Virus record (IMG/VR): IMGVR_UViG_3300031369_000002
Coordinates: 24,666-88,665 of that record
Reading direction: 5' to 3' (one strand)
DNA: 64,000 bases
Source: a virus
Shown here: positions 16,852-26,884 of the stretch, in pieces
How the letters are laid out: each line of letters starts with the position of its first letter
Numbering within the stretch: position 1 is the first letter of the stretch
The notes under the pieces: model-generated
What the model was told of the DNA's origin: nothing
What the model saw: only the letters and a program-made list of their open reading frames with translations
Databases searched by the model: none
Translations under genes and position numbers: made by a program

Positions 16852-17631
16852 TAAAATTTCCCCTTATACTTTATATTTTGTGTAGCGGTAATAATACTAT
16901 TACCCTTACCACAATTAATCTGTCCTATATTATTTTTATGATTGACGACTACTTTTCCATCTTCCATAGTTTCATTGATATTATCTATAATCTCATCAAC
17001 TAAAATAATCTCAGACTTAAGCTCTGCAATTTCCAGAGCTTCATTTACAGTCTTTAACATACTTATAATTTCTCTCTTCATTTCATCTTTTTTAACCATT
17101 TTAGCACTCCTTTTATTTAATTTTTCTATCACACAGAGGACAATAATAACTTCCCTCTTTTAAGAGCATACAACTATTATGGATATTTGCCCCACAATCA
17201 CAGATTCCAAAAACAGTATCATGCAATAGACCATCACAAGCATTACATATTAAAAATCCATCTTTATCAAACATATCCATATTAAAGCTCCTTTCTATCT
17301 TAACATTTTAAAACCCTAATTCTTTCTTAAAACAGGATATACAAAACTCTGCAAACTGATCCTCGTCTAAATCATCTTTTAAATAAGCTTTATAATACAA
17401 ACAATTATCTAAAAAATCAAAGTCGTTATCAGTTAAAATCTCTTTAATACATTTAGATACTACAAGCTCATTAAAGAAACTTGACTCCTTTAATAACCAC
17501 TCAAAAAACTTTTTATTATTCTTCTCAGCTTCACTCTCTACGATATATTTTTTACACTCAGGACACCATTTCATAGGTTTATTCTCTAAAACAGTATCAC
17601 AAGCAGAACAAACCTTTTTATCCTTATTCAT
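16848..17631 (-). other. small hypothetical genes
   Basis: ORFs 16848-17132 and 17308-17631 (CSAC/CPEC), plus short Cys ORFs. Confidence 0.6.
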
Positions 17632-17777
17632 TTAATCATCCCTTTCCATAACTTCCCTTGCATAATCCTCAAACTCTGCCTCATCTGAAATATAAGTCTG
17701 ACATACAGGACACCAGCCACTGCCATCATCAATAATAAAGTCACAATAAGGACACTCTTCACTAAAAAAATCCATGT

Positions 17778-18623
17778 TTAAACACCTCCTCTTAATATTT
17801 TCTCCATTAAATCGACTATACCTATAGCTTTAGCAAACTCATAACTTTTAGGCTCTAAAAATTCAAGTCTATCAATCTTATTAGGTCTTTTCTCAAAATG
17901 TATTCCATACAGGCAAAACTTACAGCCTGTACGAAGTTCATACTTATAAATATCACATAATTTTATATTATGGTACATGATATATTTATTGACTAATTCA
18001 TCAGACCATAATCTTAATGGAACACATTTATTAGGCATTATACAGGTATTGTATTTTTGCTTTCTTAAAATACTCTCACTTATACGCTCCCCAGTAAAAT
18101 AATAATGCCCTAATCTTTTTAATGGAGCTTTTTTTAAATGATAACAACACTTATCACTAATTTTTATATTTGTATCCAACAGCCATCTCCATTTATTAGA
18201 TATTCTAAAATTACCGTTCCCTAATCTAATATCCTTTGTCTTTTGACAACACTTAGGATTCCTAACATCTGATATATATCTGGATTGCTCTTTTGATATA
18301 ATAGGATAACCATAATCTTTTATTACACCTACAAAGGATTTTTTAGGTTTTACTATTTCAACATTATCAAAACTTTTAACAAAATCAACTATAGAATTAT
18401 ACTCAACGCCAGTATTACAAAAGATAGGCTTTATTCCTGTCAACACACTATCAATTAAATGCTTTAATACTGTACTATCCTTACCACCACTAAAACTCAA
18501 TGCTATATCATCTTTCCCCATAAAGGCTATAACACTAAATATCTTTATTTGTGCTTTTTCTATCAACATTTTTTCATAATCAGTAAACACTTGCTTAAAC
18601 CTCCTATCCTTTTTCTCTATCAA
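17778..18623 (-). CDS. phosphoadenosine phosphosulfate reductase family protein
   Basis: SFSGGKDS PP-loop, FCNTGVEY, CCYHLKK, RTGCKFC. Confidence 0.88.
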   Translation of the reverse strand: MIEKKDRRFKQVFTDYEKMLIEKAQIKIFSVIAFMGKDDIALSFSGGKDSTVLKHLIDSVLTGIKPIFCNTGVEYNSIVDFVKSFDNVEIVKPKKSFVGVIKDYGYPIISKEQSRYISDVRNPKCCQKTKDIRLGNGNFRISNKWRWLLDTNIKISDKCCYHLKKAPLKRLGHYYFTGERISESILRKQKYNTCIMPNKCVPLRLWSDELVNKYIMYHNIKLCDIYKYELRTGCKFCLYGIHFEKRPNKIDRLEFLEPKSYEFAKAIGIVDLMEKILRGGV

Positions 18624-18694
18624 TAGGTAAAGGTTCAGTAGTTTCTTTAGGCTTCTCAGGAATATAATTTTCTCCTTCTACCATAACACCCCTC

Positions 18695-20028
18695 CTAAAA
18701 TATAAGATGAGGACAACTAAAAGCCGCCTCTACTTCAATTAATATAATAAAATCACCTGACTGTATACCAGGTAAAATCTCATTAATTTTTTTAACTGTA
18801 ACCTCAGCGGCAATACTTACCATATCACTACAAGAGGTATTATAATAACCCTCTGAGTAATACTTACCGCTCCTTTTAAAGTAAGTTAATTTCACTCTAT
18901 ACATTTCCTTTTTCTCCCCTTTACAGCAATGACAATGCATATATTTTTTTATATATTCACAATAATAAGTCAATTCTCCGCATTTTTCACATCCACCAGA
19001 AAAACACCTATTATCAGCTAAAGAAATACTCTTGGGTATACTTAATATTTTAAAGCAATCAGCCATAAACACCTACTCCCATAATCCAAACTTTACAAAC
19101 TTGCCATCCACAAAATAGACCACAGTCTCAAAACATGTATAGCCTTCAACCTTTTTAGTATCAGCCGATAAAACCACATTTTCTCCTTCTTTACTATAGG
19201 CTACACCCCAATTATTCAACAATGCTATAAACTTATCAAAATCAGACAAGACCAACACCTCCTTTAATATTATACCTACCATTAAACAAAAAAGCATGTA
19301 CAATTTAAAAATTATACATGCTATAACTATTAAATTAATCCTGACCAATTATTATAAGTTCTACCATTATCATTAGCGAATAATATATAACAGTTTAACT
19401 CAGTATCCCATATAAATTTAGAATTAAAGTAACCCTGACCAGTCTTTAAAGTGCCAGTTATACATTTAAAGTCTGGCACCTTTTTAGTCACCTTATATCT
19501 AGCCTCTAAATAATCCACCAGATCATATACATCATCTAAGAATATACCTCTGGATAAATTTTGTATTCTCTTATCATCAGCAAAAAACTTTCTCTCAACC
19601 CTATTCTCACACACCATTACTTTTAGTTCTTTCATTCCCATTCCCTCCTTATCACACCATTAACCTATACACTCAGCAAACCCTTTAATAGCTGCCTGAA
19701 ACAAATCTCTTTCTAAATCTTCAAAGCTTTCTATTTCAGTACACTTAAATGTTCTTTTTAACTTCACTAAATCACCTTTAACACCACTTTTAACAGTCTT
19801 TACAGTGTTATCAGAATAATCTGATAACTTAGTATATCTCCAAGAAGAATCAATCTTTTTTTGAGCTTTTACCCATTTTCTATAGGCTTGCTTTTCATGC
19901 AAAGCCTTTTTAGAAATATGCCGAAAACACTTAACTTTATCACCTTTTATCTCTTTTATGGTCCAGGGTAAAAATAAACCCCTGACCTTACTTTCTAAAA
20001 CTAAATCACCTTTATTAAAATCACTCAT
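18695..20028 (-). other. small hypothetical genes
   Basis: ORFs 18695-19072, 19073-~19250 (true start TTG after AAGGAGG), 19330-19641, 19660-20028. Confidence 0.65.
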
Positions 20029-22029: not shown

Positions 22030-22719
22030 ATGATCTCTCCTTCAAAAAATTTTATTTATCTTATGGTTATATATTATCATGACACTTTACACATGTCAAG
22101 GATAAATATAAAAAAATAAGAGAGTATCTTAAATACCCTCTCAGCTTTATTACTTCTAATCAATTTTCTTTATATCCTGCCAATTCAAAACATACACATC
22201 TAACTTATACTCATATTTATCCTTAGCATTCTTAATTTTAGTTTTCTTATACCATATAATATTAGCCATAGGAATAGTTATTTCATCTATAGTAATGCCT
22301 ATAGAATTAATAATACACTCAGCTGTACCCGATTCTAAAAGATCACCCTTATAAAAACTATCTACATAGGCATTAAATTTATCAAACATTTAATCATCCT
22401 TTCTATTCAAATACATACTATCAGTTACTATATCTACAACAGCAACCAACTCTATAGACCCTACAATTGCCCCAGCACCTTCGACAACCCGTCCACCAAT
22501 TACACATTTAAAGTTATTATTCTCCATAACTTCCTCCTATTAAGCATCCTTTCTTATAAAACATATTCCTCATAAAAATCCTCAATGGAATAAGTCTCCC
22601 AGGAATCACCATTATTAACCTCAACACAATCCCCATGACAAACAAAATTGCTAGGGTCTACCTTACAAAAAGTCTCTACCATATCCAACATACTACTCAT
22701 AATATTCCTCCTCTTTTAT

Positions 22720-23472
22720 TTAATTAAAAAATTCTTCTAAATCAATATCATAACAATTATACCAGGCATCTGCATGATAACAATTAACGCTGCCATAATT
22801 AACATCAGGTACCTTTTTAATTTCCACCTCATACTTTTTAGAGTAATCCTTCAAAGGTTTCCATCTAAACTTACGATTAGTAAACATCTCAACTTTTTTA
22901 ATGGTAGCATGTTTTTTATTAAATCCTACCTCTTCTCTTAACTTATTAACTTCTCTACTAAGATGAGAAGCAGTCACCATAGCTGTAGCAGTTTTCTTAT
23001 CTGATATCCAGGCTTTAGTTCTAATAGCCTCATCTCTTTCTCCTATAACTACAGCCTTTTCACCCTCTAATTTTTCAATAGATAATTGCTTTTCAGCAGC
23101 TAACATTAAAGCTTCCCCATAAGTTTTAGGTACATTTAAACTATAGCTGCCAGTCTTTCTAATTGAGGGCAATACTTCACTAGTAACCCACTTCTTAAAT
23201 TTCTTAGCTTCCTCTTTCTTACTTGATAAAATTAAGGAATATAACCCAGATTCATTAATGATAGTTACACTATTTGTCCCTAATTCTTGAATTGAGAGAG
23301 TGGCTCTGTCATCTTCATCAACATGTCTTATCAAAGCGTTATACGTATTAGAATAATCTAAAATATGAGCTACATCCACGCCAATAAACCAAGGCTCCCC
23401 TTCAATCTCTAAAGACCTAATTTCAAATCCTAACCCTTTATCATCTTTCCAAACTTGTAACGCACTGTTCAT
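22720..23472 (-). CDS. Bro-N domain antirepressor-like protein
   Basis: EPWFIGVDVAHILDYSN...IINESGLYSLILSSKKEEAKKFKKWVTSEVLPSIRKTGSY. Confidence 0.92.
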   Translation of the reverse strand: MNSALQVWKDDKGLGFEIRSLEIEGEPWFIGVDVAHILDYSNTYNALIRHVDEDDRATLSIQELGTNSVTIINESGLYSLILSSKKEEAKKFKKWVTSEVLPSIRKTGSYSLNVPKTYGEALMLAAEKQLSIEKLEGEKAVVIGERDEAIRTKAWISDKKTATAMVTASHLSREVNKLREEVGFNKKHATIKKVEMFTNRKFRWKPLKDYSKKYEVEIKKVPDVNYGSVNCYHADAWYNCYDIDLEEFFN

Positions 23473-23492
23473 AAAACTCCTCCTAAATATAC

Positions 23493-23629
23493 AAAGCCCC
23501 TATATACCACCAAGTCCGACCTCAGTTATATAGGGGCTTTTACCTTATTATTTAGGTTTTTTAGTTTGGGTCGGATTCAAACCAAAAAACCTACTCAGGT
23601 ATAATATCAAATTTTAGATTTATAGTCAA
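23493..23629 (-). ncRNA. structured 5' leader: two hairpins with complementary loops (kissing loop) upstream of the Bro-N gene
   Basis: TTGACT(23624-29)-17-TATTAT(23601-06); hairpin 23553-23593 loop AAUCCGACC; hairpin 23493-23540 loop contains GGUCGGA. Confidence 0.7.
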
Positions 23630-23964
23630 CCTCTTAATCTTTTTCCTTCATCAATTCCTCTGCACACTCCGCACAAACATTTAAAACCTGCTTTGTTTTT
23701 TTATGCGTCATTTCAATTAAAAAATAATGTACAGTCTTACTACATTTCTCACACTTAGCAGTATATACAGGCCTCACTATATCCCTCCTTTCTACCATTT
23801 TTCGAGTTTACCGTCAATCATCCAGCCATACTTACAGCGACTACAGTAGCACTTTTTAACCTTTACGGTACCACCTTTAACAAACTGGGTATTTTCATCC
23901 ACCTTATCAGACTTGCCACACTGCGGACATACTTCTTTAACAGCCATATCAATCCCTCCTCATA

Positions 23965-24300
23965 CTATACATTAGGAGCATTAGTCCTTAGAACATAACA
24001 TTCAGGAGCAGGCTCCCAGCAAAAAAACATATTATCCTCATTAATTAACCTATCAATAAATACCTGATAATAACCTAAATGCAAACAAACATTATAGCCA
24101 CCAGCTTTGACCGCACTATCCATAGTATCAGCCAATAAATCATATTTTTCTAAGAGTTCTTTTTTAGGTCCAGTTAACTTAAAGTCAAAAGGAGCAAAAG
24201 ATATCCAAACTACCTTTGATTTCTCAGCAACATTACACATTACTTTTGCTGGCTTAATAGAAATCAAAACATTACTTCTATCTAACAATGTAAATCTCAT
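23965..24300 (-). CDS. hypothetical protein
   Basis: ORF with RBS AAGGAGG after a structured leader. Confidence 0.7.
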   Translation of the reverse strand: MRFTLLDRSNVLISIKPAKVMCNVAEKSKVVWISFAPFDFKLTGPKKELLEKYDLLADTMDSAVKAGGYNVCLHLGYYQVFIDRLINEDNMFFCWEPAPECYVLRTNAPNV

Positions 24301-24315
24301 TTCATTCCTCCTTAG

Positions 24316-24610
24316 AATAAATAAAGCCTCTTATTTTATGTTAAAAGTCAGAGTAACATAAAACAAAAGACTATTTTCATCATGTATTATTATATTTAAG
24401 GTTTTAAACTTGACTCTGACAACAACTTTAAAACCTTAGATACTTTAAATAAAATAAGCCTTCTCCTTGCCTATAGTTGTGATAGGACACGCATTTTCGT
24501 CGAAGCAGAAAACTTAAAGACCGCAAGTGGTTTACACAAGCTAGATTACTAAAATCTCTTCGATAACTTCATCCTAAAAACAATATAACACAAAATGATG
24601 TATCAGTCAA
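24316..24610 (-). ncRNA. ~260 nt structured RNA leader ending in a kissing-loop hairpin pair and terminator
   Basis: TTGACT(24605-10)-17-TATATT(24582-87); hairpin 24397-24438 loop UUGUCAGAGU; 19-bp hairpin 24325-24372 (3 G-U pairs) loop CUCUGACUUU. Confidence 0.7.
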
Positions 24611-24619
24611 GCATAAATT

Positions 24620-24773
24620 AAAAACACCCTAGAAAATTCTAGGATGCTAAAACCTGCAACACATTATAAATTATAAGAAAAGTAAAACTAATATTTATCA
24701 CTTATTATCCAGCACATAATAAATGAACCATTCGACTTAAAAGAAGTATAACATATTAAATCATGCCATGCAA
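24620..24773 (-). ncRNA. candidate sRNA (~115 nt)
   Basis: TTGCAT-17-(TGt)TATACT(24745-50); terminator 24624-24647 plus U tract; a new promoter follows. Confidence 0.4.
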
Positions 24774-25103
24774 CTGACAACGAATTTTAATATCACAAGG
24801 ATTAGCTCCAATATTTTTAGCCACTAATCTAAAAGAATAGCCTTGAGGGCCTCCGTTACGATAAGTAGTATATTGACCAAAAGCCGCACTCATAGGAACA
24901 TTAAAAGGCATATTAGGCACATCCTCAACAAGTTCCGAATCTCTTCTTTGAAAATCAATTTCTATATCCTCAGTATTAGTGATCATCATTAAAACATCTC
25001 TAACAAATTGAATATCATTAAACCAACCAGATTTAACAACGCCACCAACATTAAGTCCAGATACATCAATAACTAGACCCTTATCAATATAATTTGTATC
25101 CAT
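24756..25103 (-). CDS. hypothetical beta-rich protein (start MDTNY)
   Basis: GGAGG RBS before the ATG at 25103; the track start (25160) overlaps a terminator. Confidence 0.65.
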   Translation of the reverse strand: MDTNYIDKGLVIDVSGLNVGGVVKSGWFNDIQFVRDVLMMITNTEDIEIDFQRRDSELVEDVPNMPFNVPMSAAFGQYTTYRNGGPQGYSFRLVAKNIGANPCDIKIRCQLHGMI

Positions 25104-25160
25104 AAAATACCTCCAAAATATTAGTATATTTCCATAATAGCATACTCTTTTTACTAACAC

Positions 25161-25294
25161 AAAAAATAGAAGCTTTTGGCTTCTATTTGTATTTATGGTG
25201 TAATCCTCTATATAAATCCGTAAACTTATTTATAGGAAGGAATGACTAAAAGTATTTATAGACACATTATACTTTAGTCATTCACCAAAGTCAA
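25161..25294 (-). ncRNA. candidate sRNA (~95 nt) with anti-SD segment
   Basis: TTGACT(25289-94)-17-TATAAT(25266-71); UUUUAGUCAUUCCUUCCU near the 5' end; internal hairpin; terminator 25164-25188 plus U tract. Confidence 0.55.
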
Positions 25295-25958
25295 ACTTTC
25301 TTCTCAATAATGATTTTAACTTTCTTAGAAACATCCTCTACCAGATCACAATTAAATAAATCTTTTAATTTATTTAAAGCCTGGCCATCCACCCCAGAAT
25401 ATTCCCTATAATCTTCTATCTCATAAAGCACATCATTTAAAACATCCAACTCCGCATAAGATAGAATAGTTTCCTCAGGATATATTTTATCTTTTAATTC
25501 CTCTTTATCATCCTTATCAGGCTCCAAAGAACCATCAAGCCAAAAATATCCCTTTACTTCAACATAAGTTTGATTTTTTAAACCTAATAAATTAATTAAT
25601 ATTGCTTTTAAATGACCCATATGCATCTCATCAGGCCCAACCTTAGAGCCTATTATAGCAGTACATTGCATATGACTTGTCATAAGCTCAGACCTAATAT
25701 AAAACTCTACACTATAATTATATATCTTTTCCATTCTCATTCCTCCACTATAAATACTTTTTGAACCATAATATAAGTACCATCTTTTAAATTTAATAAG
25801 CTTTCTAAAACAGACTCAAGATAACTAAAGGACACCTCATCAGGCCCAACTTTAGATTGGATTGTATCTGAAGATAAAATTCTAGTATTTATAAAATCTG
25901 ACTCAATAGTATATTTGACCACATAATCATAAAATTTATCCATCTTCATTCCTCCCAT
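25291..25958 (-). CDS. tandem paralogous hypothetical genes (25291-25740, 25737-25958)
   Basis: Shared SKVGPDE...L..LL.LK..TY segment. Confidence 0.7.
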
Positions 25959-26356: not shown

Positions 26357-26884
26357 TCATTTCTGATCCTCCACTTTTTCCTTAGCTCCAAACTCACTAA
26401 TATGACAACTATTTAATTTATTATTTAAAAAATCAAAGTCGCTTTCAAAACCACCAATATAATCTAATACTCCTAAAACTGTTACTATATCACCAACTTT
26501 TACTTTTAATAATTCTTTATCCGTACTAAAGTTACAATTAAAATAATATGCCTCAATACCATTAACATCATCTTTAGGACTATAAAACTCTATTTCATTC
26601 CAACCATCTATAATATCGTTTATTTCACCAGTTATTCTATATTTTTTCCCTATATACTTATTTTTGGCTACTATCTCATTAAAATGATAATCTTTCATTA
26701 TAGAGGCAAATTCTACATTATCTAAAAGTTTATATTCTTTTATATTCTCCATATAAGAAGGACTTTCAGAGTTATAATCAGGAGTAGCCACCAACCAGCC
26801 AACTACTAAAGACAAAATAATTATGAAAAATATACCTCCTACAATACTAAAACCAATAATTAACAATATTTTATTTATACTCAT
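26357..26884 (-). CDS. membrane-anchored OB-fold (tRNA_anti-like) protein flanked by 14-bp direct repeats
   Basis: N-terminal TM; YHFNEIVAKNKYIGKKYRITGEI...VKVGDIVTVLG; tcatttctgatcct at 26357 and 26881. Confidence 0.7.
   Translation of the reverse strand: MSINKILLIIGFSIVGGIFFIIILSLVVGWLVATPDYNSESPSYMENIKEYKLLDNVEFASIMKDYHFNEIVAKNKYIGKKYRITGEINDIIDGWNEIEFYSPKDDVNGIEAYYFNCNFSTDKELLKVKVGDIVTVLGVLDYIGGFESDFDFLNNKLNSCHISEFGAKEKVEDQK

Follow-up and report, generated by a model that had tools for sequence, protein, structure and literature searches.

Adjacent Leader Hairpins with Complementary, Copy-Specific Loop Codes in an Uncultured Phage: Candidate RNA Gates of Transcription

This study describes a folded leader RNA in the 88.7-kb genome of an uncultured phage, lying on the minus strand in front of a small gene and made up of two adjacent hairpins whose apical loops contain exact 7-nt complements of each other (GUCAGAG and CUCUGAC). 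A sister copy in the same genome and another in a relative keep the pairing with different letters, from which it follows that the element is real; judged by its sequences, it is a selected RNA element with a predicted 7-nt loop–loop contact, and it belongs to an apparently uncatalogued class of phage leaders. The comparative basis is three codes in this one lineage rather than a point-by-point compensatory series. A function as a transcription gate is plausible, and the reading preferred here, at a probability of about 0.45, is that the leader would gate an intrinsic terminator by means of a kissing loop that is address-coded and needs no ligand.

Results

Genome and Promoter Classes

The window analysed, a stretch of 64,000 nt, corresponds to bases 24666–88665 of the 88,665-bp virus record IMGVR_UViG_3300031369_000002 and has 32% G+C. 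All sizeable ORFs are on the minus strand; positions given below are those of the window, and features are on the minus strand unless stated otherwise. The phage encodes a family A polymerase, DnaB-like and SNF2 helicases, RecA and a ligase. No close relative was found among isolated phages, against which blastn also gave no match, and contigs 90–99% alike are present in DNA runs from salt marsh, wetland and marine sediment; the sequencing runs listed included no RNA run, which has no bearing on expression. Over the whole genome the coding (minus) strand is extremely asymmetric in composition, with 22% G and 10% C.

The promoters of the phage are sigma-70-like and its ribosome-binding sites (RBS) are strong AGGAGG types. 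About ten near-identical strong promoters (TTGACATGTGTAAAGG...TATAAT), found for example at window positions 22099, 20098, 10863, 9750, 8994, 7798, 28915, 45364 and 55578, all lead into one and the same short leader (..CATAAGATAAAT..) with an RBS behind it. They form a class that differs from the TTGACT units with structured leaders. A TTGACT-17-TATAAT promoter also heads the unit at 25161–25294, which has a hairpin overlapping the −10 box and then a canonical terminator (GAAGC-CAAA-GCUUC followed by U6), and is conserved in the relative. Neither an ORF nor loop complementarity is present in this stand-alone unit, a candidate small RNA.

Leader of the 111-aa Gene

The leader in front of the 111-aa gene, designated copy B, is served by the promoter TTGACT-17-TATATT with a TG before the −10 box (24582–24610), which is conserved in the relative (L001) as TTGACA-17-TATATT. 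Between promoter and hairpins lie some 135 nt without a convincing ORF (24439–24581). This stretch is about 93% conserved in L001 despite a fold z of +0.81, which is no better than shuffled sequence, and by that score an aptamer-like domain within it, which had been considered, is unsupported.

Hairpin 1 (24397–24438; −13.9 kcal/mol) has 12 perfect base pairs, a G/G mismatch and three further pairs, and its loop UUGUCAGAGU contains the first code, GUCAGAG (24414–24420). An A/U-rich linker of 24 nt follows (24373–24396), which in relatives has two extra A residues inserted behind 24373. Hairpin 2 (24325–24372; −18.2 kcal/mol) is terminator-like, with 19 bp including three G-U pairs, and its loop CUCUGACUUU contains the second code, CUCUGAC (24347–24353). 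The two codes are exactly complementary (24420–24414 with 24353–24347) and form a duplex of −9.2 kcal/mol. Next come the U-rich tail UUAUUUAUUC (24315–24324; 8 U in 10 nt when the window starts with UUU, P = 0.0045 at strand composition), the RBS AAGGAGG (24307–24313) and, 6 nt further on, the ATG at 24300 of the 111-aa gene (23965–24300). The encoded protein has no family match; its sole match is its own 90% cluster of 8 members, and the gene is followed by those for two zinc-ribbon-like mini-proteins of 51 and 54 aa.

The minimum-energy fold of copy B consists of exactly hairpins 1 and 2, with −40.3 kcal/mol and z = −5.8 on the minus strand; the plus strand folds more weakly (z = −2.6). This difference, together with the G-U pairs, indicates that the folded species is the sense RNA. 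Both hairpins, the restriction of the three G-U pairs to the minus strand, the 7-nt loop complement, and the succession of tail, AAGGAGG and the 24300 start had been proposed by the sequence-only reading, and all are borne out by sequence and folding, the start codon opening the 111-aa ORF.

Sister Copies and Exchange of Cassettes

It had also been proposed that the genome holds two copies of one architecture with different loop codes, and this stands: copy A lies about 830 nt downstream (23593–23493). Its promoter is TTGACT-17-TATTAT (23601–23629). Hairpin 1 (23553–23593; 16 bp, loop AAUCCGACC) coincides with the predicted transcript start, unlike copy B, which begins about 135 nt downstream of the predicted 5' end. 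After a linker of 12 nt comes the terminator-like hairpin 2 (23493–23540), which has a G/C-rich base and an apex GGUCGGA (23521–23515) complementary to UCCGACC in the first loop (23575–23569). The tail UUUGUAUAUUU, an RBS and a Bro-N domain gene (22720–23472) follow, and the product of this gene matches PHROG 'anti-repressor' families. The resemblance noticed earlier between the starts of the two first stems, UA(A)GGUUUU, is genuine, as the copy A stem begins UAGGUUUU. The hairpin 1 stems of A and B are paralogs of about 70% identity with U-A to A-U swaps, and have TA(A)GGTTTT...AAAACC(T)TA in common; the loops and hairpin 2 stems of these copies are unrelated.

The sole relative in IMG/VR, G001 (80 kb, proteins about 93% identical), has copy B nearly unchanged, one change at a closing pair lengthening the complement to 8 nt. 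Where the present phage has copy A, G001 carries a different element, copy C, with loops GUGCAGC (hairpin 1) and GCUGCAC (hairpin 2) and a linker of 5 nt. The stems of copy C are unrelated to those of A and B, have sense-strand G-U pairs in both hairpins, and lack the motif common to the first stems of the other two. Its tail is AUUUUAUUU, followed by an RBS, a 33-aa ORF and then a KilA-N domain gene. The loops of A, B and C have no letters in common, and the hairpin 2 stems of all three are unrelated in sequence. Neither the remainder of this genome nor that of the relative yielded further copies.

Homology between the two phages is lost right after the common −35 box of the copy A promoter (23624) and is regained past the stop codon of the Bro-N gene (22715), so that the leader moves with its gene as one cassette (22716–23623: promoter spacer and −10 box, leader A, Bro-N gene), replaced in the relative by leader C and the KilA-N gene (L074 8033–8915). 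The modularity suggested from the letters alone is thereby supported, leader and gene having been exchanged together, with a new code, between 93%-identical phages. In contigs from two further runs the break falls where it does in G001 and is followed by C-type sequence. In a wetland contig (run X8) the promoter is common up to 23604, and a fourth sequence then starts with CATCACTGGTATTGTATAGTTTGATTTGAT (sense strand), which is probably another allelic cassette; the loose end of this fourth allele is absent from IMG/VR. Small mosaic replacements relative to G001 also occur near the cassette, for example at window positions of about 26378–26848 and 17613–19254.

The stem motif common to A and B, and a cassette border that adjoins the element, would suit an action at the level of DNA, in which a phage protein binds palindromes or 7-bp inverted repeats, or recombination is concentrated where cassettes meet. 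This is highly improbable. The G-U pairs of copy B hairpin 2 and of copy C work only in the sense RNA, and the plus-strand z scores of B and C (−2.6 and −2.3) compare poorly with those of the sense strand (−5.8 and −4.8). One phage carries copies with different 7-mers, which a single protein could not read, and copy C does without the stem motif altogether. An IMG/VR search for the hairpin 1 stem (AGGTTTT...AAAACCT) returned 75 loci, with a true copy only in the known relative; apart from that relative, none of the 65 hairpin-forming matches has a partner loop. As far as these searches reach, the design is independent of the hairpin 1 stem motif.

Tests against Chance

When the loops were shuffled, a complement at least as long as that observed (at least 7 nt) arose with P = 0.00015 (B), 0.009 (A) and 0.002 (C), and random loops of genome composition gave P = 0.0015–0.006. 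Copy C provides a fair, unselected test (P of about 0.002–0.006), since it was located by position and not selected on its loops. The kissing duplexes of A, B and C are G/C-rich (−9.2 to −11.4 kcal/mol) on a sense strand with only 10% C, and the U-rich tails of the copies have P = 0.002–0.012. UCCGACC and GGUCGGA of copy A each occur once in the 88.7-kb genome, and CUCUGAC of copy B occurs once on its sense strand; no second target site for the codes was found elsewhere in the genome, the sole partner of each being the other loop. A strict scan of 507 kb on both strands detected adjacent long-stem hairpins with a loop complement of at least 7 nt only at these elements.

It might be argued that the loop complement has no function, the leader being a stabilising hairpin and a leaky terminator whose loops match by chance or as a relic of duplication. 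The region is A/T-rich and folds easily, and scans with relaxed criteria were noisy, giving many 6-nt A/T-rich chance matches and adding nothing convincing. Such an explanation would nevertheless have to accommodate three independent 7-nt G/C-rich matches, the joint probability of which is very low, one of them (copy C) unselected on its loops, and a duplication relic is contradicted by the unrelated hairpin 2 stems of A, B and C. Complements with at least three G/C are moreover enriched in independent phage DNA, as detailed below, and lack of function is very unlikely.

Occurrence in Unrelated Phage Contigs

The strict detector was also applied to 773 kb of unrelated IMG/VR contigs that had originally been fetched for other reasons, and the same design was found in the contigs L095, L083, L094 and L086/L087. 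These look-alikes have the layout of A, B and C, in which a promoter precedes a stable hairpin 1, a short A/U linker, a long terminator-like hairpin 2 with its U-rich tail, and an RBS. The L095 copy begins 5 nt after a −10 box with a hairpin whose 7-nt loop is GGACGAG; a linker of about 5 nt separates it from a terminator with CUCGUCC as its 7-nt loop, and U6, an RBS and a gene complete the unit. L083, L094 and L086/L087 have instead a 6-nt G/C-rich complement to an unpaired apical patch of a long, U-tailed terminator. The fold z scores of L095, L083, L094 and L086 are between −4.8 and −5.7.

Complements of at least 6 nt with at least three G/C were present in 5 of 219 distinct adjacent hairpin pairs, against 0.62 ± 0.77 expected when the loops were re-paired (300 trials, maximum 3), an enrichment of about 8 times. 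Within the sequences compared, the element is not unique to this phage. None of 72 Bro-N and 23 KilA-N homologues has the design as its own leader, which makes the design independent of those gene families; four KilA-N loci carry look-alikes elsewhere (L083, L086/L087, L094 and L095).

Discussion

Proposed Mechanism and Its Alternatives

In the preferred reading, the leader would be a cis-acting RNA made by a host-type RNA polymerase from a sigma-70-like promoter. As it emerges, the loop of hairpin 1 would kiss the loop of hairpin 2 through seven Watson–Crick pairs, and this kiss would compete with the completed basal part of the terminator stem that hairpin 2 is proposed to form directly before the RBS. 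A set fraction of polymerases would then read through into the gene behind the leader. From the geometry, the kiss would be expected to weaken termination rather than strengthen it.

In outline, hairpin 2 resembles an intrinsic terminator: its long stem is stable, with an A-rich stretch upstream and a U-rich tail downstream. In copy B the stem (−18.2 kcal/mol) and the 8 U in 10 nt fit this role, but the loop measures 10 nt and the tail is not continuous. The U tracts of the copies are likewise interrupted, and a simple terminator consensus scan did not call the hairpins, the loops of which exceed the limit of that scan. Copies A and C have no promoter between hairpin 2 and the adjoining RBS, so that their genes would be transcribed only by read-through. 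A classic antiterminator, in which the 3' arm of hairpin 1 would pair with the 5' arm of hairpin 2, was looked for by eye and is not present beyond the loops.

The argument for competition comes from distances. If the kissing complex is taken as straight and the breathing of A/U-rich basal pairs is ignored, a coaxial kiss requires about 120 (A), 118 (B) and 134 (C) Å between the stem bases, whereas the linkers reach about 72, 144 and 30 Å, respectively. Linkers of 5–12 nt stand against stems of 9–20 bp in A, C and four look-alikes (about 5–7 nt in L095, L083 and L094), and on the same assumptions a coaxial kiss could not coexist with both full stems in most copies. Coexistence would need 5–12 basal pairs to open, at a cost about equal to the gain from the kiss. 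Copy B is an exception, as its 24-nt linker permits the kiss and the full terminator together, and the steric argument is therefore inapplicable to it.

The same modelled geometry would fit equally well with pairing between molecules, hand in hand, where loop 1 of one RNA pairs with loop 2 of another and vice versa, and the RNA senses its own concentration. A variant would have a finished short leader pair with the nascent transcript of the same unit, giving feedback through the private code only. In its favour, short linkers would strain an intramolecular kiss in most copies, and two parallel rods, each formed by one hairpin 1 and one hairpin 2 and joined by short linkers, would be geometrically self-consistent at any stem length. 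The codes are private within the genome and differ between allelic cassettes, and in A and C the unit from promoter to tail would yield a stand-alone RNA of about 105–115 nt, beginning with a hairpin and ending with a terminator as stable small RNAs usually do. Against it, the linker of copy B permits a kiss in cis, and the genome offers no second target site elsewhere. On balance, pairing between molecules is considered fairly unlikely. A more specific idea, that each exchangeable accessory cassette carries a private 7-nt RNA 'address' by which its leader would recognise its own nascent transcripts between molecules and switch the terminator, is conceivable but unlikely.

The elements could alternatively govern the fate of the RNA rather than its synthesis. 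5' hairpins stabilise mRNAs in Gram-positive bacteria, and coaxially stacked loop–loop complexes are known substrates of RNase III, so that the kiss might compact the 5' leader and thereby protect the mRNA from decay that depends on the 5' end, or the long, quasi-continuous stacked helix might be an RNase III processing site just upstream of the RBS. Hairpin 1 is indeed located at the predicted 5' end in A, C and L095, and hairpin 2 ends 9–17 nt before the RBS in copies A and B. Neither the U-rich tails nor the great length of the stems would be explained in this way, and copy B has 135 nt before its hairpin 1, which leaves no 5'-terminal protector there. A role in RNA stability or processing is accordingly judged unlikely, and gating of a terminator is preferred.

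Comparison with Known Systems

The closest known system in its working is the guanidine-IV riboswitch (mepA). In the model published for it, the kissing complex is rigid and pulls the short linker taut, which keeps the outer terminator pairs from forming and gives read-through (PMC7736828); growth of the terminator stem is proposed to hinder the kiss sterically (PMC11611296). The likeness is architectural only: two adjacent hairpins with kissing loops, the second being a terminator stem with U residues, and then a gene. In guanidine-IV, conserved loops form a ligand pocket, the weak kiss needs guanidine, and the genes are those of exporters. The phage element has seven Watson–Crick pairs predicted to be strong without a ligand, its loop letters differ between copies, and the genes behind it specify the 111-aa protein, Bro-N and KilA-N proteins, with no guanidine exporter or detoxification genes. 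The guanidine riboswitch model gave no match even at E values up to 10. By model match, conserved loops and gene association, the sequences place the element outside that family.

Among phages, short boxes that pair within a transcription unit are known from the leader-encoded RNAs CI of P4 (seqB with seqA and seqC) and c4 of P1 and P7 (immI). Their boxes differ between related phages, giving each its own specificity, and the P1 system controls an antirepressor gene. These are processed, tRNA-like small RNAs of enterobacterial phages that act in trans on linear sites, by RBS occlusion and premature termination. The elements described here are similar in having private complementary boxes on one phage unit that vary between related phages, and one copy heads a Bro-N gene; the logic of pairing between molecules, as discussed above, also resembles that of CI or c4. 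They differ in that the boxes are the apical loops of neighbouring hairpins and that nothing pairs with the RBS, and the Rfam C4 model gave no match at its gathering threshold or at E values up to 10.

In the zipper attenuator cATT of pLS20, an upstream stem-loop is complementary to a terminator and its loop, and pairing between them decides between termination and read-through with no known ligand; a long central stem-loop is extended when the terminator pairs, through its loop and 5' arm, with the 3' arm of a weak stem-loop (PMC13401043). The phage leaders have no central stem-loop between the hairpins, their hairpin 1 is of high stability, and only the loops complement each other.

Loop–loop kissing also decides the fate of a leader terminator in the countertranscript attenuation systems of pT181, pIP501 and pAMbeta1, where an antisense RNA is made from the opposite strand; in the present element both loops are on the same RNA. 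An antisense promoter is unsupported, as the plus-strand sites overlapping copy B reach only 9 of 12 matches and all point away from hairpin 2. A plus-strand site at 23576–23605 (TTCAAA-18-TATAAT, 10 of 12) lies inside hairpin 1 of copy A, also points away, and probably arises from the nearly palindromic −10 box. The lambdoid PR' – 6S RNA – tR' unit has a promoter-proximal terminator that yields a short RNA unless Q protein and the qut site license read-through; it is alike in the position of the terminator and differs in having no loop–loop pairing. The pRNA of phi29 carries two complementary loops on one RNA, which pair between molecules through 4-nt contacts in the packaging motor, and has its own Rfam family. 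Together with retroviral dimerisation loops it is the model for pairing between molecules; the phage element has no pRNA match and a different genomic context.

The novelty claimed from the letters, which a match to a described Rfam family was to have removed, has held. At the gathering thresholds of Rfam 15 there was no match in the whole window or in six related or look-alike loci, and at E values up to 10 the region 23400–25350 gave only noise, the best hit being Phe_leader with 22.6 bits against a gathering score of 55. A full-text literature search on kissing loops and terminators in phage leaders found no description of such an element, and metagenome scans found nothing. A covariance model built from these elements would match any two hairpins, because the copies have almost no common sequence and the kiss is a pseudoknot, which such a model does not represent. 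That the design recurs in unrelated phages suggests, from the sequences at hand, that Rfam lacks a widespread class of RNA.

Control of a leader terminator by an alternative RNA fold has long been known. To our knowledge, however, only one riboswitch class, which depends on a ligand, uses a kissing loop to prevent the terminator stem from being completed. The present leaders would achieve this without a ligand pocket, through 7-nt codes that change freely and stand at the head of swapped, self-contained cassettes. Should the proposed gate operate, it would offer a simple means of dimming transcription that is both programmable and orthogonal, and would explain a low dose of possibly toxic accessory genes of the Bro-N and KilA-N types. 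If the codes were in fact read as addresses between molecules, the leader would be a circuit free of ligand and protein that senses the dose of its own RNA and moves between phages with its gene.

Two other arrangements of loops were observed in the contigs. In L165 (5195–5285), two adjacent hairpins of 9–10 bp have a 9-nt loop complement (ACCCAAUUU/AAAUUGGGU), with no clear U tail on the plus strand. In L088 and L090 (2400–2508), which are Bacteroidota-type phage contigs, the loop UAAAAGCAU of a leader hairpin complements 9 nt before the start codon of a KilA-N gene, and this may be a cousin of the design that acts at the level of translation.
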